This document shows positions 6,078-56,943 of a stretch of DNA of 64,000 nucleotides, piece by piece. The position numbers and the translations under genes are program-made. Each line of letters starts with the position of its first letter. Position 1 is the first letter of the stretch. Under the pieces are notes generated by a model. The model made no database searches, was not told where the DNA came from, and saw only the letters and a list, made by a program, of their open reading frames with translations. Origin of the DNA: Nanobdellota archaeon (lineage in GTDB: Archaea; Nanobdellota; Nanobdellia; Pacearchaeales; GW2011-AR1); the NCBI GenBank assembly GCA_021818475.1, contig JAKADZ010000003.1, forward strand, positions 27,988-91,987. Direction: 5' to 3'.

Positions 6078-6205
6078 GCCTCCGTCGCATAATGGTATTG
6101 CACCGGTCTTGAGTGAGGATAAAACCTCCTAATTGTTCGTCGAGGTTTCGTCAAACAAGAGAACCGGGCCTTTATGGCTTCCAGGTTCGATTCCTGGCGG
6201 GGGCG
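6078..6205 (+). tRNA. tRNA-Ser (anticodon UGA) with a ~48-nt intron at the canonical 37/38 position and a long variable arm
   Basis: Manual fold: acceptor GCCTCCG/CGGGGGC (one G-U pair); D-arm GCAT-AATGGTAT; anticodon stem CCGGT/ACCGG with loop CTTGAGT (U33, anticodon TGA 6110-6112, R37); intron ~6114-6161 interrupting the 3' anticodon stem; variable arm GCCTTTATGGCTT (13 nt); T-arm CCAGG-TTCGATT-CCTGG; discriminator G; CCA not encoded. Confidence 0.7.
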
Positions 6206-6366
6206 TGATGGCGTGATGCGGGCTTGAAATGCCCGCCTGTTCTTAACAAAATTAATGCTAGATTATTCTGAAAATTCGATTCCGAGCGATTTCACGAATG
6301 CGGGAAATTTTTGAAAGCAATGAGTGGGGTCGCGAGCATTGACGGGGGCGTTCCTACAAAATGTCT

Positions 6367-8075: not shown

Positions 8076-9320
8076 TCAGATTCTGAAAATTTTTACCTGC
8101 TTTCTCTCGCATGATTTGCAGATTTTTTTCCCGTTGTTTTTTGTTATGTGATAATCACAGAAAATTTTTCCGCAGGCATCACATCTGTTCCAGCAGTGAG
8201 AGCATAATGTCCTTCCGCATTCCTCGCATTTTTTTGTCTGGCAGCTCTTGCAGTAAACACTCCCGCATGATGCACATTTGTCTCCGCATTCTCTGCAGGT
8301 TATATGCCCCGAAGAGCATAATATTATCTCCTTGACTTCTTTTCCGCAGCTTTTGCAATGGACAGGGGAAACAATTTTTTTCAGCGGATCATAGCCAAGT
8401 TCAATAATTTTTAAGTTATTCTTCTCAACTTCCATGGTCAGATTAAGATTATAAAACGGAAAATAAATAATCGTGGTATTGACGAGCTTAGTGTCAATTT
8501 TCAGCCCGTGCTTTCGGATTTCTTTTTGTATGAACTCTTGCTCTTCTTCTTTTATTTTATTTTTATTACTATTCTCATTCAGATTCTCAAGCATTTTGTT
8601 CAGCCTTTTTACTTTGTCGCGGTCTTCCCTGTTTGCTTCAATCTGTTTCTTCAGCGAATTTTCCTGCTCCTCAACTTCCGACAGATTATTCTGGTAAAGC
8701 TGGTTAATCCTCGCAATTTCATTATTGAGCTGCTCCCCCAATTTTTTCTTAAGTTCTTCGGTCTTAGGCAAAATTATTTTTTTCAGCTCTTCTCTTGCAA
8801 GGGAGTACTCTTTCTCCGCGCTGACTTCCTGAAAGTCTCTTTTATTCCCTTCAGCCAGATTTAGGGAATTATCAAAATCAATTATTTTATTATCCAGAAC
8901 GTAAATCTGATTGATTACAGTCTCCTTTTCATTCAGATACTGGAATGTGGTTGCAAAGGAAAATTTGAAAATAAACCTGTTCGTAGAATTTTTATTGATG
9001 CTTCTTATTTCAGAATTAAGAAAAGGAATTCTCTTCGGAATTTCTTCCTTGAAATTAATTCCAAAATCAATTCTCAGAAGAGTGGTTTCCCCTCTTCCTT
9101 CAAGAAATTCTTTTATTGTTTTTACAAGATAATGACTTTGGGAGACATACTCATATCCTTCCCTTTCTCTGTCAAATGAAAAAAAATACGGTCCCTTTTT
9201 TCCGGAAAACTTTTCGAAATTCGCGGGGATTTCTGAAACAACAAGTTCTCTCTCTCTCTGCTGGACATTGCACCCTATGCTTTTGAAAAATTTGGAATAA
9301 AAATTAATCAGTTCATTCAT
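8076..9320 (-). CDS. coiled-coil protein with a C-terminal cluster of ~9 CxxC zinc-ribbon motifs; last gene of the helicase operon
   Basis: 414 aa: N-domain, long K/E/N-rich coiled coil, then HCKSCG...CRECGDKCASCGSVYCKSCQTKKCEECGRTLCSHCWNRCDACGKIFCDYH...CKSC. Its start overlaps the SNF2 gene stop (9313-9320). Confidence 0.55.
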   Translation of the reverse strand: MNELINFYSKFFKSIGCNVQQRERELVVSEIPANFEKFSGKKGPYFFSFDREREGYEYVSQSHYLVKTIKEFLEGRGETTLLRIDFGINFKEEIPKRIPFLNSEIRSINKNSTNRFIFKFSFATTFQYLNEKETVINQIYVLDNKIIDFDNSLNLAEGNKRDFQEVSAEKEYSLAREELKKIILPKTEELKKKLGEQLNNEIARINQLYQNNLSEVEEQENSLKKQIEANREDRDKVKRLNKMLENLNENSNKNKIKEEEQEFIQKEIRKHGLKIDTKLVNTTIIYFPFYNLNLTMEVEKNNLKIIELGYDPLKKIVSPVHCKSCGKEVKEIILCSSGHITCRECGDKCASCGSVYCKSCQTKKCEECGRTLCSHCWNRCDACGKIFCDYHITKNNGKKICKSCERKQVKIFRI

Positions 9321-22791: not shown

Positions 22792-24801
22792 ATGAATCTT
22801 GAAAAATCCTTTTTTAAGAGGATAAAAAATGTTGCAGCCGCAGTTGCAATAAGTTCTATGATTTTTGCATGCACTCCTGCAGTCTCTCCAAAGCCGTCGC
22901 AGGAAAATCAAAATCAGCAGACAACTCAGACACAACCTCAGCCTCAACCAACTAATTCGGTTTATGATTACACCACTTCTTCTGCTATTGCAGTTTCGCA
23001 GTATTTAACTTCTCAAAATGGGGGAATTGTCGAAGTGAATGATTTTAAAAGTTCAATTAATGGTGCACAATTGCAAATCTTGGCTGATTCATTAAAATAT
23101 GATACTACAATTTCTATCGGCAGAGTTGATAACCCTCCTGAACTTCCAAGCGGATTAAACTATGTCGGTCCCCCTATAGATTTAACTCCCGACGGAACTG
23201 CTTTCCGCACATCGTCGATAATAACAATCCCCTATCAAAATGAATTTTTAAGTGATGCAGGAATTTCTGATGATTCAAATTTGAAATTATACTCTTACGA
23301 CAAATTTGCAAAAAAATGGACAGAGGTAACAGGATTTTTAAAAATCCCCTCTGAGAAAAAAATAATGGCTTATGTAAACCATTTTAGTTATTATGCAATT
23401 ACAGTTATGGATGGTGTGCCCCCTTCAGATATGGGGAATCCACAGGCGGGGGATTTATTGTACTGTTTGGGTTCTATTTTTACAAATCATGGTACGGGAT
23501 GGAGGCCTGGGCACGTTGGAATTTATGTAGGGGAAAAAAGTTGGAATGGACAAAGGTATAATGTAATAGAAGCTCTTGGCCATGGTGTTCAGCGTAGTTA
23601 TTATAACCCGATATCAAATTTTAGTAATGGTTCAGTGTATATGGGCGCAAGAGAACCAAAAAATTTCACTTTAACATCTAACCAACGCAGATTAATTGTT
23701 GAATATGCAGAAGAACAGATTGGAAAACCTTATGCATGGGTGCAGACGACTGTAGGAGTTTTATTTGGATTAGCAAAAGGTTCTTTGGTAAAAGGAGGAA
23801 TTGGTTCATACAATTGTGTTGGTTTGGCAGAAGCAGCATATGAATATGCGGGAACAAATAATGGAGACGGGCTTGTTCCATATTTGCAGGAGGAGACTGG
23901 ATTTGGTGATGTGCCTGGAGCTTTAACTCCGGCAGAACAATATAATTATACTAAACCGGCAACGGGAATTTCTCCTGGATCAGGAAATAATTCTTCTTTA
24001 GAAAAAATCCTTTTTCAGTCTAATCGCGATGATGGTTCTGCAATTTACATTATGAACTCTGATGGAACAAATGTTCAGAGACTAACTGATTTATCATATG
24101 CGAGTGAAAGTCCAAAATGGAATAAGACAAGAGATAAAATTGTCTTTGTTTCAAATAAAGGGACCTCTTTTGGCCAGGAATGGAGTTCAAGATACGAAAT
24201 TTATTCCATGAACTCTGATGGAACAAATGTTCAAAGATTAACTAATAATTCTTATGATGATAATGAACCATGTTGGTCACAAGATGGGACTAAAATTGTC
24301 TTTGTTTCAAATAGGGACAAATTAACGACGGGTTATGATTTTCAATTATATATAATGGATGCTAATGGAGCTAATCAAACTAAACTCTCTCCAGATAATT
24401 TTTTTGCCGAAGAACCTTCTTTTTCTCCAGACGGAACAAAAATTATTTACAGCGGATATAATGGAGTTTATACCTTAAATCTTTCAGATAAAAAAAGAAC
24501 AAAATTAAATTCAGATAATATCAACATCCATAATCCTTCTTGGTCATCTTTCTGGGGGAAAATATTGTTTACTTCTGAAGAAGATAATCAGATTTATGTG
24601 ATGGATTCTAATGGATTAAATAAACGTAAAATAATCTCTAGCCCCGGGCTTAACTTCTGGCCTTCTTGGTCAAAAGACGAATCCAAAATTTTATTTTCTT
24701 CCAATCGAGATGGTAATTGGGAAATTTATTCTGTTTATTACGACGGTCATGGATTGACTGATCTTACTAATAATCCTTCTGCAGATATCTCCCCAAATTG
24801 A
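22792..24801 (+). CDS. lipoprotein with a permuted NlpC/P60-like cysteine peptidase domain and a C-terminal TolB-like (PD40) beta-propeller
   Basis: Lipobox-like MIFAC; His-containing PGHVGIYVG precedes the Cys-containing SYNCVGLAEAAY (permuted order); at least six SNRDGxxEIY / MNSDGTNVQRLT PD40-type repeats. Confidence 0.55.
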   Translation: MNLEKSFFKRIKNVAAAVAISSMIFACTPAVSPKPSQENQNQQTTQTQPQPQPTNSVYDYTTSSAIAVSQYLTSQNGGIVEVNDFKSSINGAQLQILADSLKYDTTISIGRVDNPPELPSGLNYVGPPIDLTPDGTAFRTSSIITIPYQNEFLSDAGISDDSNLKLYSYDKFAKKWTEVTGFLKIPSEKKIMAYVNHFSYYAITVMDGVPPSDMGNPQAGDLLYCLGSIFTNHGTGWRPGHVGIYVGEKSWNGQRYNVIEALGHGVQRSYYNPISNFSNGSVYMGAREPKNFTLTSNQRRLIVEYAEEQIGKPYAWVQTTVGVLFGLAKGSLVKGGIGSYNCVGLAEAAYEYAGTNNGDGLVPYLQEETGFGDVPGALTPAEQYNYTKPATGISPGSGNNSSLEKILFQSNRDDGSAIYIMNSDGTNVQRLTDLSYASESPKWNKTRDKIVFVSNKGTSFGQEWSSRYEIYSMNSDGTNVQRLTNNSYDDNEPCWSQDGTKIVFVSNRDKLTTGYDFQLYIMDANGANQTKLSPDNFFAEEPSFSPDGTKIIYSGYNGVYTLNLSDKKRTKLNSDNINIHNPSWSSFWGKILFTSEEDNQIYVMDSNGLNKRKIISSPGLNFWPSWSKDESKILFSSNRDGNWEIYSVYYDGHGLTDLTNNPSADISPN

Positions 24802-24873: not shown

Positions 24874-24930
24874 CCGAGCGATTTTGCGAGTGCTGGTAAA
24901 AATAAAAATGCAACGAGCAGGGTCGGGAGC
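24874..24930 (+). repeat. GC-rich repeat family 1, copy B (upstream of spt5)
   Basis: CCGAGCGATTTTGCGAGTGCTGG...AAATGCAACGAGCAGGGTCGGGAGC; shares the CCGAGCGATTTYRCG core and the GGGTCG.GAG tail with copies at 6281, 26221, 37588, 44405 and 56872 (reverse orientation). Confidence 0.55.
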
Positions 24931-24941
24931 TAAACAAGAAA

Positions 24942-25394
24942 ATGATTTTCATAGTAAAAGTAACAACAAATAAAGAAGAAAGAGTTTTGGACATGATAGC
25001 TGAAAGAGCACAGAAAAAAAATTTAAACATCTTTTCAGTTTTTCGTCCTCATGGACTTAGAGGTTATGTTCTTTTGGAAGCAGAAGACAGAGAATCTGCT
25101 GAAGAAGCGGCATTTGACTTGCCTTATGTTAAAGGAATAATCGGGAAAACAATTAATTACGACGAGATAAAAAATATGGTTGAACCTTCTGCAGCAACAA
25201 TATCAATCAAGGAAGGGGACATTGTCGAAATGATCGCTGAACCTTTCAAAAAAGAAAAAGCGAAAGTTATAAGAATAGATAAACAAAAAGATGAAGTAGT
25301 GGTAAGCTTGCTTGGAGCAGTTGTTCCATTGCCGGTTACTGTTAGATTAGATAACGTTAAAGTCATAAGGAGAGAAGAAGAAAATGCAGATTAA
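24942..25394 (+). CDS. spt5: transcription elongation factor Spt5 (NusG homolog; NGN + KOW)
   Basis: 150 aa; KOW-like GDIVEMIAEPFKKEKAKVIRID; its stop overlaps the L11 start, as in archaeal spt5-rpl11 operons. Confidence 0.85.
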   Translation: MIFIVKVTTNKEERVLDMIAERAQKKNLNIFSVFRPHGLRGYVLLEAEDRESAEEAAFDLPYVKGIIGKTINYDEIKNMVEPSAATISIKEGDIVEMIAEPFKKEKAKVIRIDKQKDEVVVSLLGAVVPLPVTVRLDNVKVIRREEENAD

Positions 25395-26067: not shown

Positions 26068-26103
26068 AACAATTTATAAATTAATATTCGTTAAATTTTT
26101 TAT

Positions 26104-26176
26104 GGGGCTGTGGGGTAGCCTGGTAGCCTTAGAGGTTTGGGACCTCTCGACCCCGGTTCAAATCCGGGCAGCCCCA
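26104..26176 (+). tRNA. tRNA-Pro (anticodon UGG)
   Basis: Manual fold: acceptor GGGGCTG/CAGCCCC; anticodon stem AGAGG/CCTCT with loop TTTGGGA; T-arm CCCGG-TTCAAAT-CCGGG; discriminator A; 73 nt, no intron. Confidence 0.8.
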
Positions 26177-26220
26177 TTGTTTCGAAAAAATAAAACCCAT
26201 AACGGATTTGAACTTCAAAT

Positions 26221-26290
26221 CCCGAGAGTTTGCACGAGTGCGTGCAAAGATAAAAATGCAATGAGTGCGGGCTCGAGTTCGGCAGCCCCA
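26221..26290 (+). repeat. GC-rich repeat family 1, copy C, ending in a 12-nt copy of the tRNA-Pro 3' end
   Basis: CCCGAGAGTTTGCACGAGTGCGTGCAAAGATAAAAATGCAATGAGTGCGGGCTCGAGTTCGGCAGCCCCA; GGCAGCCCCATT at 26281-26292 repeats tRNA positions 26167-26178. Confidence 0.6.
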
Positions 26291-26313
26291 TTTAATAAAA
26301 TACAGAAAAGAAA

Positions 26314-36777: not shown

Positions 36778-37128
36778 ATGTCACAGACAACACGGGAAAT
36801 CACCCTTAAGGAATCAAAAGGAACATTTTCAATATTCAGGAAATCGTCGTCAAATAAAGAAAATTATGATTTTTCAGGGATTTCCGCATTAAGACAGCTT
36901 CTAAGCAACGAAAAGGCAAGAATACTTGATGTAATAAAAAATGAAAATCCTTCTTCATTATACCTTCTGTCTAAAAGGCTTGGGAGAGATTTCAAATCTG
37001 TCCACGAAGATGTAAAATTGCTAGAAAGATTTGGATTTTTGGAGCTTGTAGAGGAAAAAACAAAGAACAGAATAAGGCATAAACCAAGGCTTATTTCAGA
37101 TTCTATAACTATTCACATAAAACTTTAA
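36778..37128 (+). CDS. small winged-helix transcriptional regulator (HTH), divergent from the S-layer-like gene and adjacent to the pilin cluster
   Basis: LDVIKNENPSSLYLLSKRLGRDFKSVHEDVKLLERFGFLEL resembles an ArsR/PadR-like wHTH. Confidence 0.45.
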   Translation: MSQTTREITLKESKGTFSIFRKSSSNKENYDFSGISALRQLLSNEKARILDVIKNENPSSLYLLSKRLGRDFKSVHEDVKLLERFGFLELVEEKTKNRIRHKPRLISDSITIHIKL

Positions 37129-37712
37129 CTGTAAACAGTCAGAGAAACCTCATAATCCTGCCCGCTTCTTGCAAAATCCTGGAATCCTCCCTGATATTCT
37201 GCAGTTTTATTCCCCTTATCAATAGTAAGCTTGTCCTGTCCGTCAGCACTCACTTTCAGCTCATATCCCTTTATCGCGCTTTGATTCCCCGCATTCCACG
37301 AGTTTTCAACTATTCCCGCAAACGTCGAATTAAGAACATCACAGCTTGCCCTTCCGTCAATACAGCTTTCTCCGCTATTGCATGATATAATCAAATCCTG
37401 CAGGTTAAGAAATTGGATTTCATTCTCGCAGTCAGTGGTGTATTGGAGTGAAGCCTGAATAAAACTGTCAATCTGGTAACTTTCAGTTGTTCCTTTGGTT
37501 GGGCTTTTTATTAAAAAACTAAGCAAAATCAGCAATCCTACTGACACAATGATCGCAATAAGCGCAAATCCAACCATTTCCTCTTGCCCCGAGCGATTTC
37601 GCGGAGTTAAGGTCAGTGATTTGGAAGCGAGGTCGGGAGTTGTTTTGTTGCGGTACAAATGAAAAAAATTTCCTGTTTTTTGCTTCTGCCCTTTATTATT
37701 TAATCTTATCAT
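37125..37712 (-). CDS. archaeal type IV pilin-like protein (class III signal peptide, long leader)
   Basis: ...KSLTLTPRNRSGQEEMVGFALIAIIVSVGLLILLSF: basic residues then G-Q followed by a hydrophobic helix. The leader-coding region contains family-1 element D. Confidence 0.55.
   Translation of the reverse strand: MIRLNNKGQKQKTGNFFHLYRNKTTPDLASKSLTLTPRNRSGQEEMVGFALIAIIVSVGLLILLSFLIKSPTKGTTESYQIDSFIQASLQYTTDCENEIQFLNLQDLIISCNSGESCIDGRASCDVLNSTFAGIVENSWNAGNQSAIKGYELKVSADGQDKLTIDKGNKTAEYQGGFQDFARSGQDYEVSLTVYS
37588..37639 (+). repeat. GC-rich repeat family 1, copy D, embedded antisense in the leader-coding region of pilin gene 37125-37712
   Basis: CCCCGAGCGATTTCGCGGAGTTAAGGTCAGTGATTTGGAAGCGAGGTCGGGAG is ~85% identical to 44405-44460 although the rest of the two genes is diverged. 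Confidence 0.6.
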
Positions 37713-38308
37713 GTTGTGGTTTTATCCTCTGATGCTACGAGAAGCATCGCAAGTTCGCATTTATCATAAACAATTTTCCCGTCAGTTTCTTTTCTGCACA
37801 GGGAAATATAATTTGAACTGTAAGGAAGTATTTTCACATTTTGGTCCAAAATTTTTATATCTCCGCAGTCAGGATAATTATTTGCGTCGCATATTTTATT
37901 ATTTCCTGCAGGATAAATTACCCTTATCTCTATTTTTGCAACTCCCCAGAAATTTGAGTAATCTGAATTATTTTTTAAGGCCATCACTTTGTCAAAATCG
38001 ACACAGTCTGTCGCGCTGCTTCCAAAAGAATTTCCGCATGAAAATTCAGGGGAATTTGCAAGTTTTGATACGAGGAGCATAGAACTTTCTTCTGCAATAT
38101 TAACTGCGCTTTTCTTGACATTCGAGAGAAGTATTGAAAGGAAAAAAAGCCCGACGAGAACAAAGAGAATTGTGACTGCTATAATCATAAATATTGTCTG
38201 CTGAATTTTAATCTGCCCGGATTTGTTTTTAGCAGGCGTGACCACACTTTTAAATGGAAAATCCCACGAAGAAAATCTGTGAGGTGTCGTCGCTACCATA
38301 ACATGCAC
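37709..38308 (-). CDS. archaeal type IV pilin-like protein
   Basis: ...PAKNKSGQIKIQQTIFMIIAVTILFVLVGLFF; likely start is the ATG at 38299 (MVATTPHR); overlaps neighbours by 4 and 16 nt. Confidence 0.5.
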   Translation of the reverse strand: MHVMVATTPHRFSSWDFPFKSVVTPAKNKSGQIKIQQTIFMIIAVTILFVLVGLFFLSILLSNVKKSAVNIAEESSMLLVSKLANSPEFSCGNSFGSSATDCVDFDKVMALKNNSDYSNFWGVAKIEIRVIYPAGNNKICDANNYPDCGDIKILDQNVKILPYSSNYISLCRKETDGKIVYDKCELAMLLVASEDKTTT

Positions 38309-39273
38309 ACCCTCGCATTATTTGTCTGATCGATAGATTCTGCTTCTGCCTGAATAACAGATAAATCTGAGGATTGATTGAGGTTCCCCGCATCTTTCCC
38401 GAGGGTGTTCAGTTCTTCCCCTAAATTGCTGTCACATCCTTTTCCCTCGGTGATAAGCTCTTTATTTGCATAAAGTGAAGACAACTCCCTCAGTCTAAGC
38501 ATCAGCCTTTTAACCTGGCATTCATAGACAGTGCTGTTTGAAAAAATAGCGGCATACATCAATGCTTTTGAATCGCTGACTCCTGAGAAATACATGACCG
38601 TCCCGTTTTTCTCAACCGAATCAGAACTAAAGTCGACATTTATATTGCATCTCTGCTGACCGAAACAAACTTTCACGTCGCTGTCTGAACAGTCGTTAAT
38701 TTTTAAATTGCTCTGGTTTAACTGTGAAATTTCTGTGCTTATATCATTCGGAGCGCCAACAAAGCAATAATTCACGTCGGCAGAAGTGATGTACATTAAA
38801 TCTGCAATTTTAAACGGAAAATTAAACGGCTCAGAAAAAATATAAAATTTCTGCCCTTCTACCTGGCTTTCAGAAAAAATATATTTATTTTCAAATCCGA
38901 CTCGGGTATCTGTTGCGACCCATTTTCCAAAATTTTTCTGGTCTAACTGTATAACTTGCTGCCCAAAATCTCCGGTCGGAATGCATATATTATCTATCCT
39001 GGTATCTGTCGGTATTGTTATCGACGTAGTTTGTGCAGATTCAAAGCTGGTCTCCATCGGGTCGAGCAAAACCCCTATCTGCTGTCCTGTTTCAGCGCTT
39101 ACTGCTGTCTGTTGTGTTCCTATAAGTTTTGAACTGAGATAAATAGCAAGAAAGATTATTACTATCCCTGCGATAATTGCAAAAAGCCATCCAAAAGATA
39201 TTTCCAAAGCCCCTCTGCTGTTTTTTCCTGAAAAATTAGCGAGAGAAAAATTTTTATTCTGGCTTCTTTTCAT
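38293..39273 (-). CDS. archaeal type IV pilin-like protein (326 aa)
   Basis: ...FSGKNSRGALEISFGWLFAIIAGIVIIFLAIYL, class III signal-peptide pattern. Confidence 0.5.
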   Translation of the reverse strand: MKRSQNKNFSLANFSGKNSRGALEISFGWLFAIIAGIVIIFLAIYLSSKLIGTQQTAVSAETGQQIGVLLDPMETSFESAQTTSITIPTDTRIDNICIPTGDFGQQVIQLDQKNFGKWVATDTRVGFENKYIFSESQVEGQKFYIFSEPFNFPFKIADLMYITSADVNYCFVGAPNDISTEISQLNQSNLKINDCSDSDVKVCFGQQRCNINVDFSSDSVEKNGTVMYFSGVSDSKALMYAAIFSNSTVYECQVKRLMLRLRELSSLYANKELITEGKGCDSNLGEELNTLGKDAGNLNQSSDLSVIQAEAESIDQTNNARVCMLW

Positions 39274-39279
39274 TTTATA

Positions 39280-39723
39280 TCACCTCGTTACTGTAACCAG
39301 CGTCTCTCCGAAATTTTTTTCAATTGTCATGCTTAATTTTCCGTTTGCAGTCTGGATGCAATAAGGATTTTCATCTTGGGTTATTTTTGCCTGATCTATA
39401 TTTTCAATTGTTTTCTCAGGAACTATCTGGCTCGAGGTAAATTTCAGATTGCCGACAGGATCTCCGTTGATAAAACAGACTGCACTTATATAAGAAGGCA
39501 GAGGATAAACCACTGTCTGGCTTCCCTGAACACTTTTCCACATCTTATTTATATCATCCTGAAAATTATTGAGAAATGTATCTATCTGAACTGACTGCTG
39601 CAAATCTATAAATTTTTTTATTGCATAAAATGCGAATGCGAGAAAAACAATTATCATAATTATTGTAAAAATCATTCCGAACGACAAATTCATCTGCCCC
39701 TTAATGTTCCCTCTTTTATCCAT
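39280..39723 (-). CDS. archaeal type IV pilin-like protein (~147 aa)
   Basis: MDKRGNIKGQMNLSFGMIFTIIMIIVFLAFAF; the ORF-track start at 39771 is probably too far upstream. Confidence 0.5.
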   Translation of the reverse strand: MDKRGNIKGQMNLSFGMIFTIIMIIVFLAFAFYAIKKFIDLQQSVQIDTFLNNFQDDINKMWKSVQGSQTVVYPLPSYISAVCFINGDPVGNLKFTSSQIVPEKTIENIDQAKITQDENPYCIQTANGKLSMTIEKNFGETLVTVTR

Positions 39724-39873
39724 ATCTAAAAATATCCAATATAACTTATAAATTTTTACATAACCAATCATCAGTCATGAGCACTATCTCAGGGGAAAAT
39801 GATTGTAGCGAAAAATAAATTTTTCACTAATTCGTATAAATCCAAATTAAAGAAACCGCGTAGGTTTCGTTCA

Positions 39874-42051
39874 TCAGTAACTGCTGAAGGGTCTTACAGT
39901 TATACTGCATTCATCAGGATTTGGCTGATTTCCAAATTCATCCTGGCATTTTACATAGTAATTGCTGTTTGTATTCCAGTCAGTAAAGTGGTTTATGAAA
40001 TCTGTTGTTGTCATGTTAATGCCGTCGGCAAAATTATAACTGCAGCTGTTTGTTCCATAAACGCAGTTAGACTGTTCATCGGTTACAATGTTTAGTTGAT
40101 TATTCTCATTGTAAACTCTCACAACAGTTGGTGGCTGGAAGTCGCTTTCTACAGAGAATTGTGTTGACTGTGTAGCGCAGTTTCCATTTAATTCAGCGAG
40201 GTCACAGCATTTTATTGTATAATCATAATTTCCTGCATCCAGCCATAAATCCTGAGAATGCTGGTATGAGTTTGTGTTTGCGAATAATACATAAGCGCTG
40301 TCAGGCTGAGAGGTCTGCTTGAAATCGCAATATGCCTGTCCTTTATTGTATCCTGCAGAAGTGTGAGCAGTCAATGTGACTTTCACACTTTGTGTTGAAT
40401 CTTTGATTGTGCTTCCGACGTCAGGCGTTACAGAGTCAATAACTAAAGGCTGTGTCCCGTATAAAATATATTTGTAATCTGTTGCCATAGTATACCTGTC
40501 TGATTCATTATTAAGAGGATAACTCTTACAGTTGAAATAAAAATCGTTTTCAGTGCTGTCTTTCAGTCCGTCGACTGTCCCGGAACATTTGTAATAAGTA
40601 TTTGCATTCATTTCAGTTATACTCTGGGCACAGGTCATTGTATTGGGCATATTGTCATAAGATTCATCATTATGGCTCCATTTGCAGTCTGCAGGTTTGT
40701 CTGTGTAAATATTTACATCCTGCGAAGTCTTTCCGCTTTCAACAAACCATCCATTTAAAGGTTCTGTTAATTCAATTGAAGGAGCAGTGGTATCAGGACT
40801 CTTCTGCACGCAATATTTGAATACAAATGTTCCGACATTTGAATAACCATTTTCACTCTGGCATCTTACATAGACATTGAAATTTCCTCCGTTGCTTAAA
40901 TTGATTCCCTCATTAGATAATTCCGTTAATCCGCCGTGGACAGACATTAAAGTATGATTATACAAATATTCTCCGCTGCTGATTGCCTGTGCCATCTCGT
41001 CAAATGTGTCTGTTCTGTTTGTGTCTATTTTGCACATTCCTGGTTTATCAAGGGAAATTCCATAAGTTAATCTTGTGAATGCAGGAATGCATCCATCTGA
41101 TGTTTTTTTATCTTTTATTACAACTCCTGTATCTCCGGGAAGCGTCGCAGTATAAGGGTCATATTCAAATTGTGTTTTATCCAATGGTCCATCCCATGCA
41201 GTTATTGCAGGAGGATAAACATCATTTCTGTTGTTCCAGACGCACATTTCATCACTTGTTCCTGAATTCAGCAATTTGCAACTCTGGCCTAAACTTTCAC
41301 ATTTGTATTCAGTACAGGGCAATGCTCCTTTATTGCATTGTTCACAGTCAGCTCCTCCTGTTACTGGATGCCAAGGCAGACAACTGAATTGCACTGCATC
41401 AAATCTTACATCTCTGTAAGTAAATAATGCAATTAGGACACCAATTCCTGCCCCAATTAATCCTAACCCTGAAATAACTAATCCTCCAAAAGGAAGTGCA
41501 AGCCCCCAAAGAGGAGTTCCTGTTGCAGCAGAATATAATAATCCTACTGCTGCCCCAACCCCGAATCCAATTCCCACTGCATGTGAGACAGAATCTGATA
41601 ACTGCGGACTTACTCCCATCCATTGTAAAACATAAGTTGTTCCGTAATATAATGCTACTGCAATTCCTCCGTTAGTTAATATGTTCATTCCATTAGCCCA
41701 AAGATTGGCTCCAAACTGACTCCATCCGACAAAACTTGTTCCTCCTGCTCCTCCGGCCCCACCTGCTCCGCCAGCTCCTGCTGCAGGATACATTGAAGGA
41801 TTTTCTGCTCCCATAAATGCATAAGGATTTTTTACTCCTGACAATGCTGCAGTTGGCGTGGGTGCAGACGAAAGTGCTGCTTTTGCCTCGGCCATCATAT
41901 CAGGAAGATTGGAACTAACTGTAGTTATATCTGCAGCGTTGACAAATCCAAATTCATTTCCTACAAAATAAGAAAATGCAGAAATACTTCCAATTAATAT
42001 CATAATTTCAAATATTGCAATTGCCCCTTTTTCAAAATTTTTCTTTTTCAT
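39874..42051 (-). CDS. large pilin-like/polytopic membrane protein with class III signal peptide, Gly-rich segment, 3-4 extra TM helices and a big Cys-rich extracellular domain
   Basis: MKKKNFEKGAIAIFEIMILIGSI (start at 42051 avoids an 80-nt overlap); GAGGAGGAGGAGG; hydrophobic block GIGFGVGAAVGLLY...GLVISGLGLIGAGIGVLIALF; ~40 Cys in the C-terminal 450 aa. Confidence 0.5.
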   Translation of the reverse strand: MKKKNFEKGAIAIFEIMILIGSISAFSYFVGNEFGFVNAADITTVSSNLPDMMAEAKAALSSAPTPTAALSGVKNPYAFMGAENPSMYPAAGAGGAGGAGGAGGTSFVGWSQFGANLWANGMNILTNGGIAVALYYGTTYVLQWMGVSPQLSDSVSHAVGIGFGVGAAVGLLYSAATGTPLWGLALPFGGLVISGLGLIGAGIGVLIALFTYRDVRFDAVQFSCLPWHPVTGGADCEQCNKGALPCTEYKCESLGQSCKLLNSGTSDEMCVWNNRNDVYPPAITAWDGPLDKTQFEYDPYTATLPGDTGVVIKDKKTSDGCIPAFTRLTYGISLDKPGMCKIDTNRTDTFDEMAQAISSGEYLYNHTLMSVHGGLTELSNEGINLSNGGNFNVYVRCQSENGYSNVGTFVFKYCVQKSPDTTAPSIELTEPLNGWFVESGKTSQDVNIYTDKPADCKWSHNDESYDNMPNTMTCAQSITEMNANTYYKCSGTVDGLKDSTENDFYFNCKSYPLNNESDRYTMATDYKYILYGTQPLVIDSVTPDVGSTIKDSTQSVKVTLTAHTSAGYNKGQAYCDFKQTSQPDSAYVLFANTNSYQHSQDLWLDAGNYDYTIKCCDLAELNGNCATQSTQFSVESDFQPPTVVRVYNENNQLNIVTDEQSNCVYGTNSCSYNFADGINMTTTDFINHFTDWNTNSNYYVKCQDEFGNQPNPDECSITVRPFSSY

Positions 42052-42055
42052 TTTT

Positions 42056-43639
42056 TTATCCGCTGCTCCCGGTTTGTATTGATATCTGACTTTGAGTATA
42101 TCCATCTTTTCCGAGATAATTCTTCTGATTTCCACAGTCTCCTAACTGAGTGCAGATATTATTCATCTGAGTCTGCCAATTTGGACTTAAACATGAACAG
42201 TTATTTTTTCCGCTCCATCCCAAAAAAGTACTGTCTGGAGAACAAGTCCAGCTTCCGCCGATTGATTTTTCCATTCTTACTATGCAGGTTGAACTTGCTC
42301 CTGCACAGCTCGAAGTTGTGTCGCTGCTTGGGGTTTGACTAAATCCCGGCGCATAATTTGGAACACAAATTCCAGAAGAACCGGTATTTTGAAGTCCGCT
42401 CGATGTAAAATTATATCCTGAAGAACTTACCCATTTGCAATCTCTTACATTACTGTCTTCACAATCTGATTGTGTTGACTGGCCCCAGCAATCCTGCCAA
42501 ATATTCACTTTGCAGTTTGCAGTATAAAATTTGCTTCCTGATGAAGTTATTGTATCATTTTCTACACAAACTTTTTGTCTTGGTGAATCACATTCTTCAT
42601 TTGTGACTTCTCCATTATAACACATTAATCTGAAATCAGTTGCTCCTGGGGAATAGCTGTTTCCTGTTTTTGAATCTGTTGAACACCATGTCTCTCCTTG
42701 TTTTGGATAGTTAGTTGAAGTGGCATATCCTGTTGGGGAACCGCTGTATGGCCCGCGATAATTCACACAGTCTAGATTTCTGCATAAGTTATTCCCGTAA
42801 TTTACAGAATCTCCTGACTGCTTCGCCTGGCACATACTTCCTGAATAATAATCACAAACTCCGCAGCTTGGGGAATTCTTATTCCCTTTGCCGTCGTCGC
42901 ATGTGGGAGATTGTATTTTTGTCCAGTAATTTTCATCATTTATCTTTGAAGAATCATAAACATTTGCCAGGTTTCCGCAGCTGTCTTCAAAATAAACATT
43001 TCCGTCGTCACCGCAAATAGTGTTTTGTGTTTTTCCGCAGACAGTTCCCAATTCCTGCGCACTGCACAAATATCCTTCGTGGAATGAAACATTTCCGAGG
43101 GCAGAATTTTGCGCCATTGTCTGGCAGTCTTTTTTTGTATCCATTTCACAGGTTGTTACATAATCTTTTGTGTAAACACACGCCCCCTTTGCCTGGGGAT
43201 TTGCGCTTGCAAGACAGGTTAATTCATCGTTGACATTTGGCTGGTAAGTAGAATCAATTCCATAAAGCACAGACATTCTGTTGCATGCAACTTGCGTAAC
43301 AAATGCCGCCTGGTCTCCCATTAAACAGCACCCTAATTTACATTGGGGAAGACTGCTTTGTGGCTGAGGGCTCCAAAACCCGTTATTGCTTTCACATGCT
43401 CTTTCTGTTGAAGGCATACATGTTCCTTCCTGCTGGTCGATGCAGGTTCCTTCTGCACAAAAAGATGTTGATGCGCAGGGAGTAGACAAACTTTTGTAAT
43501 TGCTGTCGCATTGAGATTGATCATTTACATTCTGGCAAAATGCTCCTGAAGTTGTTTTTTCACAGCAATAACTTGCTGCACTCACAATTCCAATTAGTAA
43601 AATTCCAAAGAACAATAATAAAAATATTTTTCCCCTCAT
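42056..43639 (-). CDS. secreted Cys-rich protein (527 aa), candidate pilus-associated adhesin
   Basis: Sec signal MRGKIFLLLFFGILLIGIVSAAS; more than 60 Cys; no TM. Confidence 0.5.
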   Translation of the reverse strand: MRGKIFLLLFFGILLIGIVSAASYCCEKTTSGAFCQNVNDQSQCDSNYKSLSTPCASTSFCAEGTCIDQQEGTCMPSTERACESNNGFWSPQPQSSLPQCKLGCCLMGDQAAFVTQVACNRMSVLYGIDSTYQPNVNDELTCLASANPQAKGACVYTKDYVTTCEMDTKKDCQTMAQNSALGNVSFHEGYLCSAQELGTVCGKTQNTICGDDGNVYFEDSCGNLANVYDSSKINDENYWTKIQSPTCDDGKGNKNSPSCGVCDYYSGSMCQAKQSGDSVNYGNNLCRNLDCVNYRGPYSGSPTGYATSTNYPKQGETWCSTDSKTGNSYSPGATDFRLMCYNGEVTNEECDSPRQKVCVENDTITSSGSKFYTANCKVNIWQDCWGQSTQSDCEDSNVRDCKWVSSSGYNFTSSGLQNTGSSGICVPNYAPGFSQTPSSDTTSSCAGASSTCIVRMEKSIGGSWTCSPDSTFLGWSGKNNCSCLSPNWQTQMNNICTQLGDCGNQKNYLGKDGYTQSQISIQTGSSG

Positions 43640-43640
43640 T

Positions 43641-44492
43641 TTATGTTGTTGGCGTTAAGTATCCTGCAGGCCATATTTGCCCTCTTATTGCAAACTGAAA
43701 TTTATCTCCTGTGTCTCTGTCAGTCAGTACGTAAATTTTTCCGTCATTTCCCCTCAAAATTTTTTCTGCTTTCAGATTATGATAGTAAGTCATGTATGTT
43801 GCTACATCAACATCACCATAACTTGCTTCCCATTCGATTATACTATTAGCTATTGAAACTAATTCATAAAGATTATTATTCACCAAAACAACAAATGAAT
43901 TATACTTCTGCGCATTTTCTCCTTTTGTCAAAGTTAAGGAATAATTAAAAGTTGCGACAATCCTGTTTGGAAATAATTCAACTGTTTTCATTCCAGGTTT
44001 TAAATCGACGCTGAATCCTTGTTTGACATAACTCTGCTGCATTGATGTAAAACAGGCATCGACGTTATTGCTTATCTGATTTTTAATCTCTGATTCAATA
44101 TGTGATTTTAACATTGGCTGCTGCACTTCGCACGGACGGTAATATTCATTTGTGTAACATAGGTATTCAACTTTTGAATCGTTGTAAAGAAGATAATTTG
44201 TTGCATTTATGCTTCCTCCCTGCAGTGAAAGAGTGTCGACGGCATTTTTAATATCCTGTTCAATGCAGGATTGAATAAATTGTTGCGGACTTTGCTGTGC
44301 TGTTCCCAAACTTGTTTTAATCTGCGGATAAAAACTATAAATAAGAAGTCCTACAGCGACGATGATTATTCCGATGATAATAAAAATAGTTACCTGCCCC
44401 GAGCGATTTCGCGGAAGTAAGGTCAGTGACTTGCAAGCGGGGTCGCAAGCAGTTTTATTACTTAGAAAATTATTTCCCTCTTTTTTATCCAT
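43641..44492 (-). CDS. archaeal type IV pilin-like protein (283 aa), paralog of 37125-37712 at the leader
   Basis: ...ACKSLTLLPRNRSGQVTIFIIIGIIIVAVGLLIYSF; the leader-coding region contains family-1 element E (44405-44460). Confidence 0.55.
   Translation of the reverse strand: MDKKEGNNFLSNKTACDPACKSLTLLPRNRSGQVTIFIIIGIIIVAVGLLIYSFYPQIKTSLGTAQQSPQQFIQSCIEQDIKNAVDTLSLQGGSINATNYLLYNDSKVEYLCYTNEYYRPCEVQQPMLKSHIESEIKNQISNNVDACFTSMQQSYVKQGFSVDLKPGMKTVELFPNRIVATFNYSLTLTKGENAQKYNSFVVLVNNNLYELVSIANSIIEWEASYGDVDVATYMTYYHNLKAEKILRGNDGKIYVLTDRDTGDKFQFAIRGQIWPAGYLTPTT
44405..44460 (+). repeat. GC-rich repeat family 1, copy E, in the leader-coding region of pilin gene 43641-44492
   Basis: CCCCGAGCGATTTCGCGGAAGTAAGGTCAGTGACTTGCAAGCGGGGTCGCAAGCAG. 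Confidence 0.6.
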
Positions 44493-56871: not shown

Positions 56872-56943
56872 TCCCGCCCACCCAACTCGAGCCCTCACTC
56901 ATTGCTATTATATTTTTTCCTGCATTCGTGAAAACTCTCGCCC
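56872..56943 (-). repeat. GC-rich repeat family 1, copy F (reverse orientation) in a convergent intergenic region
   Basis: Reverse complement reads GGGCGAGAGTTTTCACGAATGCAGGAAAAAATATAATAGCAATGAGTGAGGGCTCGAGTTGGGTGGGCGGG. Confidence 0.55.

Follow-up and report, generated by a model that had tools for sequence, protein, structure and literature searches.

Why do two otherwise diverged pilin-like genes of a Nanobdellota archaeon share a short GC-rich segment in the region encoding their leaders, and why do relatives of this segment recur between genes? The question is raised by a 64-kb stretch of contig JAKADZ010000003.1 (35% GC), referred to here as the window. A first-pass annotation had recognised the segment in two window genes that it called pilin paralogs, and had proposed that it might be a recombination or gene-conversion site for pilin switching, a regulatory RNA structure or a captured mobile sequence. 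The analysis presented here favours the last of these options. The two segments, designated copies D and E, are most likely in-frame insertions of a mobile or repeat hairpin element, and they probably belong to a mobile family of hairpin repeats in AT-rich Woese-, Pace- and Nanoarchaeota genomes, similar to the Rickettsia palindromic elements (RPEs) and the repetitive extragenic palindromic (REP) sequences.

Copies D and E are each 51 nt long, are identical at 44 of 51 positions (86%) and are located inside the 5' ends of open reading frames (ORFs) on the minus strand. D was placed at 37589-37639, in agreement with the earlier 37588-37639, while E was recovered at 44399-44449, such that its earlier position (44405-44460) had been shifted by ~6-10 nt. 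The encoded peptides are ..KSLTLTPRNRSGQ and ..KSLTLLPRNRSGQ, respectively, each followed by a hydrophobic helix; on the minus strand, D itself reads TPDLASKSLTLTPRNRS and extends into the first base of the -1 Gly codon, and E reads ACDPACKSLTLLPRNRS(G). Across the junction with the mature part (the slash marks the processing site), the readings are ..TPDLASKSLTLTPRNRSG/QEEMVGFALIAIIV.. for D and ..ACDPACKSLTLLPRNRSG/QVTIFIIIGIIIV.. for E, which gives the host N-termini ..RNRSG/QEEMVGFALIAIIVSVGLLILL and ..RNRSG/QVTIFIIIGIIIVAVGLLIY. Both host proteins thus display the features of a class III (prepilin-type) signal peptide, i.e. a basic n-region, G/A/S at position -1 and a hydrophobic domain directly after the processing site. 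The designation as pilins therefore holds for the N-terminus, but not at the level of protein families, as no Pfam pilin family was matched by either host protein.

Outside the segment the two genes are diverged, as had been observed previously: the 60-nt flanks of D and E are identical at 22/60 and 24/60 positions, which corresponds to the background for 35% GC, and the mature proteins exhibit 33% amino acid identity with a third-codon-position identity of 0.29. The 15-mer CCGAGCGATTTCGCG has exact matches in D and E only. At up to two mismatches it yields four matches in the window against 0.02 expected, and a two-arm pattern likewise yields four against 0.00 expected. Four noncoding relatives (copies A, B, C and F) were indeed present, as had been claimed, but none of them contains the exact 15-nt core, A and B carrying one mismatch each and C and F being diverged. 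The D/E reading frame runs into a TGA in copy A (read directly), and the codons CGA and CGC (Arg) and TCG (Ser) used in D and E each account for at most 5% of their codon family across the window. The segment is therefore conserved at the nucleotide rather than the protein level, as the first-pass annotation had suspected.

The conserved sequence forms a hairpin. The GC-rich unit, 45-72 nt in length, can be written as 5'-CC GA GCGAUUUYRC GA ..variable loop.. GA GYRRGGUCGS GA G(U)-3', with shared arms CCGAGCGAUUUYRCG and GYRRGGUCGSRAG (DNA consensus CCGAGCGATTTYRCG and GYRRGGTCGSGAG) around a centre of ~20-45 nt that varies in sequence and length and in which another copy can be nested. In D, the arms are CCGAGCGATTTCGCG and GCGAGGTCGGGAG, and the loop contains AAGGTCAGTGA. 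On the plus strand the arms form a 10-bp stem that includes two to three U.G pairs, whereas the minus strand has A.C mismatches instead and folds more poorly. The outer stem end is closed by G.A, A.R and a C-G pair; at the inner end, a G.A is found in 113 of 115 distinct cores retrieved with a strict search pattern, mostly followed by A.G to give a tandem G.A.

Covariation of the arms, which had been put forward as a check on the segment, was evident. Among the 115 strict-pattern cores, one stem pair is represented by G-C (71), A-T (43) and G-T (1) and never by A-C, and a second by C-G (96), T-A (7), T-G (9) and C-A (3); a third position is U-A or U.G, and two U.G pairs are invariant, as set by the search pattern. 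In 127 distinct sequences collected with a covariance model, some of these 'invariant' positions are replaced by C-G or U-A. In this larger set, 96.2% of cells are paired and both-side changes occur at 7 of the 10 stem pairs. The observed values were not attained in any of 500 shuffles, whichever measure was used, and all slid registers collapsed. Copies C and F, as well as a second copy in locus L047, have three arm positions changed on both sides with the stem retained. Based on the covariation, the shuffles and the register tests, the fold is real and strand-specific, and could be formed by RNA or single-stranded DNA.

A number of known structures were considered for this fold and rejected. 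A tRNA fragment, or a split or permuted tRNA half, was dismissed because neither ARAGORN nor Rfam finds a tRNA in the element, the T-loop-like bases at tRNA-linked copies being duplicated tRNA sequence rather than part of the element. At the gathering threshold, Rfam 15 reports only two tRNAs in the window, and E-value scans around copies E and A returned chance-level snoRNA and CRISPR matches only (E>2). C/D-box and H/ACA sRNAs were discarded, as no C/D boxes are present and the snoRNA matches are at chance level. A kink-turn (L7Ae-binding) was rejected because the tandem G.A at both stem ends adjoins a C-G pair without a 3-nt bulge; a kink-turn-like CCC bulge can be drawn for E only, using the flanks of E. 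Core motifs of small ribozymes and riboswitches (hammerhead, twister, pistol, fluoride) were not seen by eye or in Rfam. Finally, two palindromic double-stranded DNA sites for a protein (GCGANNTCGC twice) were rejected since the covariation links arm to arm and not the halves of each palindrome.

Evidence for insertion of the element comes from E. A protein search performed with the mature part of E only, and hence independent of the DNA pattern, retrieved 1043 homologs at E<=1e-10. The closest of these, P0002 (contig L226), is 90% identical and has the same neighbours as E, with PCNA upstream and the 524/527-aa gene downstream, yet lacks the segment. In the DNA alignment, P0002 reads AAA/CGGGGGCAG (slashes here mark the junctions) where E reads AAA/ACTG-CTTGCGACC...ATCGCT/CGGGGCAG, a difference of exactly 51 nt, and comparison of the filled and empty sites reveals no target-site duplication and a 3-nt microhomology, CGG. 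Together with the more than 125 copies found in many contexts and genomes (see below), this syntenic empty site supports the earlier suggestion that a mobile sequence had been captured.

Leaders were compared among the best 120 of the 1043 homologs. In 97 of these, the leader is shorter than 19 residues (in most, shorter than 14) and has the form M..[KR][KRS]G/QVTIF; three besides E possess an intact element-type leader, and ~20 exhibit intermediate leaders resembling decayed copies (..TPTIFLKKNRRG/, ..NFFPKNRRG/). A neighbour-joining tree built from the mature parts of these 120 homologs requires 20 state changes for the 23 long leaders, compared with 21.4 for shuffled states, indicative of repeated gain or loss of the leader state, although the tree is rough and leader recombination could contribute. 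For D, the ortholog in locus L181 shares 51% amino acid identity with a third-position identity of 0.34; the arms are kept, the loop is unrelated and L181 holds a second tandem copy, which points to turnover rather than vertical conservation. The part of the D leader upstream of the element (37640-37712, minus strand; N-terminal 24 residues) reads ..KTGNFFHLYRNKT and resembles the decayed ..NFFPKNRRG of the E homologs. To judge from these residues, the D leader may contain the decayed remains of an earlier copy in front of a more recent intact one.

The element is distributed well beyond the window. A loose pattern scan, with one genome per species, returned ~27 copies with a covarying stem, all of them in low-GC metagenome-assembled genomes named Woesearchaeota, Pacearchaeota, Nanoarchaeota/Nanoarchaeia, Naiadarchaeum or 'archaeon'; pattern matches in GC-rich bacteria have no stem and represent chance matches. 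A stricter pattern applied to metagenomes identified 109 loci, bringing the strict-pattern total from both scans to 125 distinct copies, and a viral contig collection gave no match to the element. Of these 125 copies, ~60 are plainly intergenic and ~30 lie beside tRNA genes (~90 intergenic together), ~10 are inside conserved ORFs, in either orientation and always with a continuous frame, and 22 are antisense in class III leaders, directly before the -1 Gly/Ala and the hydrophobic helix. Signs of mobility include nested copies, tandem copies and presence/absence between close relatives. For example, locus L015 (2115-7777) contains at least six copies within 8 kb, all on one strand and in successive intergenic spacers with genes on both strands, and this array, which is near-identical in L175, includes tandem copies and a copy nested in the loop of another. 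In the searchable literature, no paper with the arm sequence or with the PRNRSG motif in this context was found, and publications on DPANN repeats, hairpins and tRNA-linked elements, along with a recent Nanobdellota genome survey, describe nothing similar.

The conserved ORFs that carry a copy encode Cbf5, PheRS beta (PheT), PheRS alpha (PheS), a RIO/Bud32-type kinase and ScpA, with sense-orientation copies in PheS/PheT, the kinase and ScpA. The cbf5 gene has one copy in L071 and two tandem in-frame copies in the near-identical L138, and removal of 57 nt from the L071 gene restores the consensus GKELGIGAHM (read directly). Three PheRS beta orthologs have a common insertion site with inserts of 16-18 codons, and the PheRS beta gene of L163 harbours two separate in-frame copies (1219-1277 and 1631-1683). 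In the 22 leader copies, the open frame always reads ..PRNRSG/ (or ..AKSLG/) and the length is a multiple of three in 20, the other two being halves of tandem pairs. In silico deletion of the element leaves canonical short leaders such as MKNKK-G/AMEMS.., MKKN-G/VLDISFGW.. and MNEVINKK-G/QVTIF...

These contexts bear on the simplest alternative, namely that the segment represents conserved signal-peptide codons of a large paralog family and that the intergenic look-alikes are decayed 5' gene fragments. The ..PRNRSG/ leaders encoded by the 22 copies, and a protein-level relative of the leader in a third window paralog, are what such codons would produce. The ~90 intergenic copies have no pilin-like flank, however, and the sense-orientation copies are embedded in PheS/PheT, kinase and ScpA genes; moreover, compensatory changes preserve the stem while altering the peptide (L<->P, R<->P<->C), residues encoded by the loop are not conserved, rare codons are used, and the segment is missing from most of the listed E homologs. 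Conservation at the nucleotide level and the existence of noncoding copies contradict plain leader codons without noncoding copies, the outcome that the first-pass annotation had specified as its refutation. The noncoding copies, the sense-strand copies and the empty orthologous site refute the paralog-codon explanation, leaving it practically untenable.

The continuous frames are equally relevant to the idea that the element is an intron of the bulge-helix-bulge (BHB) type, or another intervening sequence spliced at the RNA level to restore an M..KKG/ leader. Its deletion does restore KK/G in leaders and KELGIGAHM in Cbf5, cbf5 carries an intron in some archaea, and the organism of the window has at least one intron-containing tRNA. 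Splicing requires neither the single open frame observed for every ORF-embedded copy nor the multiples of three observed for 20 of the 22 leader copies. Furthermore, on inspection of both strands (without a dedicated BHB scanner), no arrangement of a 3-nt bulge, 4-bp helix and 3-nt bulge could be drawn at the ends, where a continuous helix with tandem G.A is found instead; copies occur in both orientations in ORFs, and decayed copies persist as coding sequence. An intron is thus very improbable.

Since the minus-strand frame is open, the element would be translated through rather than removed, reading T-R-D-L-A ... P-R-N-R-S. Archaeal pilins possess a basic n-region, G/A at -1 and a hydrophobic domain after the processing site, and archaeal prepilin peptidases are reported to depend critically on a charged residue at -2 (PMC4371748). 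Compared with such signal peptides, element-bearing leaders are at least 17 residues longer and have Ser at -2, which is not charged, with Arg at -3. Translation through the element would extend the basic n-region by 17 residues and recreate a [KR]-S-G/ motif, where R-N-R-S before the -1 Gly may mimic the ..NKSG/ of uninterrupted homologs, which also use ..NKSG/Q. Old copies would then decay toward AT-rich Lys/Arg codons (..FLKKNRRG/); in decayed copies, the Ser at -2 is mostly changed to Arg or Lys, which fits adaptation after insertion. Copies presumably survive where they are harmless, and signal-peptide n-regions, being tolerant of length change, would be such places. The exact position in the leader may be explained by the -1 Gly codon usually being the only CC/GG in the A-rich n-region.

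The recurrence of one boundary in these genes bears on the proposal that the element is a site of recombination or gene conversion between pilin-like genes, operating in pilin switching or in shufflon- or integron-type cassettes, with a recombinase acting on the folded site where the promoter/start codon meets the mature coding region. The same boundary before the -1 residue is indeed occupied in at least six class III families, several of them in one gene cluster, and D and E form direct repeats separated by 6.8 kb. They are also more similar to each other (44/51) than E is to the element in its ortholog in L199 (41/51), which fits homogenisation within the genome. In architecture, the element recalls attC sites, which function as folded single strands: it has conserved ends, a centre variable in length and sequence, conserved mismatches in the single-strand fold, and a location at gene boundaries. 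It nevertheless differs from attC in lacking the RYYYAAC/GTTRRRY core and in having copies inside ORFs and next to tRNAs, and the majority of copies lie neither within nor close to pilin-like genes. Neither a recombinase gene nor silent cassettes nor inverted partner sites turned up in the surroundings of D and E (Pfam was run on ten ORFs, with most cluster ORFs giving no match), no cassette array or integrase was present in the window ORF list or among the ten scanned ORFs, and the flanks of D and E show no homology. A role in pilin switching, as raised by the first-pass annotation, is therefore quite improbable.

A more serious competitor is a hairpin that serves the host as a functional cis- or trans-acting nucleic acid motif, its mobility being only the means of its spread. 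The motif could be a protein-binding RNA or DNA site, or plus-strand transcripts of intergenic copies, some of which are found immediately downstream of tRNAs, could pair with the complementary arms of pilin-like mRNAs and thereby co-regulate the whole set of surface proteins; by sequence logic, every pilin-like mRNA that bears the element has a leader complementary to the intergenic plus-strand copies. The strong covariation and the strand-specific U.G and tandem G.A pairs are features typically displayed by recognised RNA motifs, the arms do not vary between distant DPANN lineages, orthologous pilin-like genes keep them while synonymous sites are saturated, and the same tRNAs carry the element in different genomes. 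Conversely, copies are oriented either way with respect to host genes and are also embedded in unrelated housekeeping ORFs, they form nested and tandem arrays, and their presence or absence is near-random on the tree of E homologs, most of those listed being devoid of the element. Decayed copies, in addition, show no selection at the nucleotide level after insertion, and no Rfam family is matched. A host-maintained motif is thus unlikely, although it deserves some weight. The regulatory RNA structure suggested by the first-pass annotation is disfavoured by a favoured fold that is antisense to the pilin mRNA, both orientations in housekeeping ORFs and the presence/absence polymorphism.

Copies next to tRNA genes exhibit a distinctive flank architecture. 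In all of the first 12 cases inspected, a T-loop variant (CAAAT, CGATT or CGAAT) of the upstream tRNA on the same strand directly precedes the element on its 5' side, and 1-7 nt after the element the 3' end of that tRNA and its trailer are repeated. The resulting direct repeats, which are copies of the tRNA end, range from 9 to 88 nt. In L127 (4370-4620) and L183 (6300-6570), where the repeat is 83-88 nt, the element is situated exactly at the joint of a tandem duplication that extends from the T-arm into the trailer, with a GGTT microhomology to the T-loop at the L183 joint. Many copies also have an inverted T-loop copy before the direct one, giving a second hairpin. In a mirror class (L123, L126 and L036), the orientation is reversed and the element interrupts a partial copy of a tRNA-Leu 5' end at the GG of the D-loop. 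Different genomes share the tRNAs involved, with tRNA-Leu(TAG) in L069 and L092 and tRNA-Pro in the window and L096. Conserved tRNA loops would accordingly be preferred landing sites, where only events that leave an intact tRNA copy survive. A casposon- or integrase-type insertion with a fixed target duplication at tRNA 3' ends was rejected, as the repeat length is not fixed (9 to 88 nt) and more than one tRNA is used.

At the junctions in general, the CC(GAG) end of the element displays 2-5 nt of microhomology (CGG at E, CCGAG in cbf5 and CC at T-loops), and the other end is followed by 1-7 filler nucleotides, usually T, then A/T, then G. Besides the CC, which was fixed by the search pattern, the target-site logo offers just a weak preference for A at -5 and for T at +1. 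Neighbouring copies are more often on the same strand (21) than on opposite strands (9; p=0.04), and on long contigs the same strand is used by 4/4, 2/2, 2/2 and 5/6 copies, though genes lie on both strands. GC skew was discarded as a marker of leading and lagging strands, as its profile follows the gene strand and is uninformative.

Given the strand-specific fold, the lack of terminal inverted repeats and target-site duplication, and the co-oriented copies, mobilisation via a single-stranded hairpin intermediate is proposed, if only as a tentative guess. Single-stranded DNA could be processed by an HUH/Y1-type enzyme, as is the case for IS200/IS605 and REP elements; alternatively, template switching could take place at the hairpin during replication or repair. 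Across ~1 Mb of loci, tblastn searches with IS608 TnpA and an E. coli RAYT identified one TnpA-like ORF of the IS200/IS605 type (L220, 158-631, plus strand; 157 aa; E=8e-8 to IS608 TnpA), on a DPANN-like contig. This ORF is unlinked to any copy, and the HUH/Y1 step therefore stays a guess.

Several points weigh against a purely mobile element. No mobilising enzyme was linked to the family in the ~1 Mb of loci searched, where the L220 TnpA is not flanked by copies and the nearest, at 8713, is 8 kb away. The variable 3' filler and the 5' microhomology are untypical of precise HUH transposition. Near-invariant arms across DPANN orders could reflect selection on a host function of the hairpin, as RNA or DNA. 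Pattern searches need intact arms, which makes arm conservation among their matches partly circular and leaves the protein-based search as the unbiased control. The concentration of copies at a single exact codon of class III leaders (22/125 copies, at least six non-orthologous protein families and ~20 separate events in one family) may signify targeting or function rather than tolerance alone. Lastly, translation and signal-peptide cleavage of element-bearing leaders are predicted from sequence. 

Two further readings were considered. The element could be a toggling leader module that inserts and excises seamlessly at the -1 Gly codon, with plus-strand transcripts from intergenic and tRNA-linked copies that pair with every element-bearing pilin-like mRNA; such a module would fit the ~20 separate state changes among the 120 closest E homologs, and is regarded as a long shot. 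In a related reading, a new single-hairpin, duplication-free mechanism may be targeted to tRNA T-loop and D-loop sequences. Insertion of a mobile hairpin repeat into leaders that tolerate it nonetheless remains the favoured explanation for D and E.

Among described systems, RPEs are the closest functional analogue of such a hairpin repeat, being inserted in frame into many genes of a symbiont with a reduced genome. RPEs are palindromic, are found in intergenic regions and in frame in many unrelated genes, and are translated as an extra peptide, with no transposase of their own known (PMC10969869). They are set apart by their length (~100-150 bp), their bacterial host and an apparently unrelated sequence from the element described here (45-72 nt; DPANN archaea), which, unlike RPEs, has a strand-specific stem with U.G and tandem G.A pairs, a strong association with tRNA T-loop/D-loop duplications and a recurrent orientation- and frame-specific position in class III leaders. 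[quoted passage not shown]

REP/RAYT and IS200/IS605-derived palindromes are short, imperfect and highly repeated, with conserved mismatches; they are mostly extragenic, strand-specific and orientation-biased, with neither terminal inverted repeats nor target duplication. Similarities between the element and REP/REPIN sequences or IS200/IS605-derived palindromes are seen in size, abundance, strand specificity and the absence of terminal repeats and duplication. The element differs in having no GTAG-type head, a variable 3' filler and frequent in-frame coding insertions, and no RAYT/TnpA gene flanked by its copies was found in the loci searched with the queries given above. By sequence, host or defining features, the element does not appear to be a member of the RPE, REP/REPIN or IS200/IS605 groups. 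As far as can be told, its repeated presence in class III signal peptides in a specific frame and orientation and the duplications linked to tRNA loops are both undescribed.

In total, the covariance model identified six copies in the window (Table 1), two of which (C and F) were detected by this model only; F is the single minus-strand copy. Copies A and C correspond to the 3' type of tRNA-linked insertion, with duplications at 6186-6351 and 26167-26292, respectively. An intron-containing tRNA is found 76 nt upstream of copy A; a copy of its T-loop, TTCGATTCC (6275-6283; original at 6186-6194), precedes the element, and a repeat of its 3' end, CGGGGGCGT (6198-6206 and 6343-6351), follows. The tRNA, recognised by Rfam and missed by ARAGORN, is presumably an intron-containing archaeal tRNA, and a GC-rich hairpin (GCGGGC-TTGAAAT-GCCCGC) that resembles a T-arm or terminator follows it. 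Copy B is found between an ORF ending at 24801 and an ORF starting at 24942, the latter Spt5-like by eye only. Copy C is downstream of tRNA-Pro, with a T-loop inverted-repeat hairpin before it and the direct repeat GGCAGCCCCATT on either side (26167-26178 and 26281-26292); its stem is kept through compensatory changes despite the variant arms.

Table 1. Copies of the hairpin element in the 64-kb window, with their host ORFs and adjacent features (a slash marks the processing site; scores are those of the covariance model unless stated)
Feature	Position	Strand	Score (bits)	Description
Copy A	6282-6336	+	60.2	Intergenic
Copy B	24874-24929	+	56.9	Intergenic
Copy C	26222-26277	+	32.1	Variant arms CCGAGAGTTTGCACG and GTGCGGGCTCGAG
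Copy D	37589-37639	+	55.8	51 nt
Copy E	44399-44449	+	52.1	51 nt
Copy F	56886-56941	-	30.6	Intergenic, variant arm type as C
D host ORF	37125-37712	-		195 aa, class III signal-type N-terminus ..RNRSG/QEEMVGFALIAIIV..
E host ORF	43641-44492	-		283 aa, N-terminus ..RNRSG/QVTIFIIIGIIIV..
Decayed leader relative	38216-38254	-		In paralog 37709-38308; FKSVVTPAKNKSG/Q versus SKSLTLTPRNRSG/Q of D
Pilin-like gene cluster	37125-44492	-		At least six ORFs with class III signal-type N-termini
tRNA upstream of A	6078-6205	+	41.4 (Rfam)	128 nt
Hairpin after this tRNA	~6217-6238			GC-rich
tRNA-Pro upstream of C	26103-26177			
T-loop hairpin before C	26204-26222			Inverted repeat
HVO_A0114 ORF	36778-37128	+		Small ORF

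The gene cluster that contains D and E comprises at least six ORFs with class III signal-type N-termini (..G/Q or A, then a hydrophobic helix) and also encodes two further proteins, one of 527 aa, Cys-rich and secreted-looking, and one of 923 aa; no significant match to a Pfam family was obtained for any of these proteins. Homologs of the cluster are abundant in DPANN metagenomes, and its synteny beside PCNA and primase is conserved. Two of the ORFs, 37709-38308 and 38293-39273, retain decayed AT-rich remnants at the protein level (..KSVVTPAKNKSG/ and ..NFSLANFSGKNSRG/). The leader relative in the first (Table 1) uses AT-rich codons and does not match the covariance model, and an ortholog of this paralog in L189 carries an intact element. 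Two others, 39280-39771 and 39874-42135, have short leaders, but their orthologs in L129 and L095 have intact elements. A nucleotidyltransferase/HepT-like toxin-antitoxin pair is located between the 524-aa and 754-aa genes of contig L226 (5375-6002); the window counterparts of these genes (42056-43639 and 39874-42135) overlap and leave no space for such a pair. The small ORF next to the D host gene matches Pfam HVO_A0114 (E=8e-17) and is convergent with that gene, the ORF ends overlapping by 4 nt.

The genomes of DPANN archaea are tiny and these organisms rely on contact with host cells, and their pilin-like surface proteins are central to this lifestyle yet almost uncharacterised. The element described here would extend the concept of selfish DNA inside protein-coding genes, known from Rickettsia, to Archaea, where pilin-like signal peptides, Cbf5 and PheRS are affected, and it offers a tangible marker by which insertion, decay and possible exaptation in signal peptides can be dated. 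It also serves as a warning for annotation, as long GC-rich 'leaders' and small insertions in DPANN proteins may be derived from the element, and the covariance model is usable for mapping it in complete Nanobdellota genomes. The link to tRNA T-loops, the absence of target duplication and the strand bias make the mechanism of mobilisation a tractable question. Should the element turn out to be a toggling module, it would represent a mobile-element-based way for ultra-small episymbionts to vary or co-regulate their whole adhesion and pilus repertoire.

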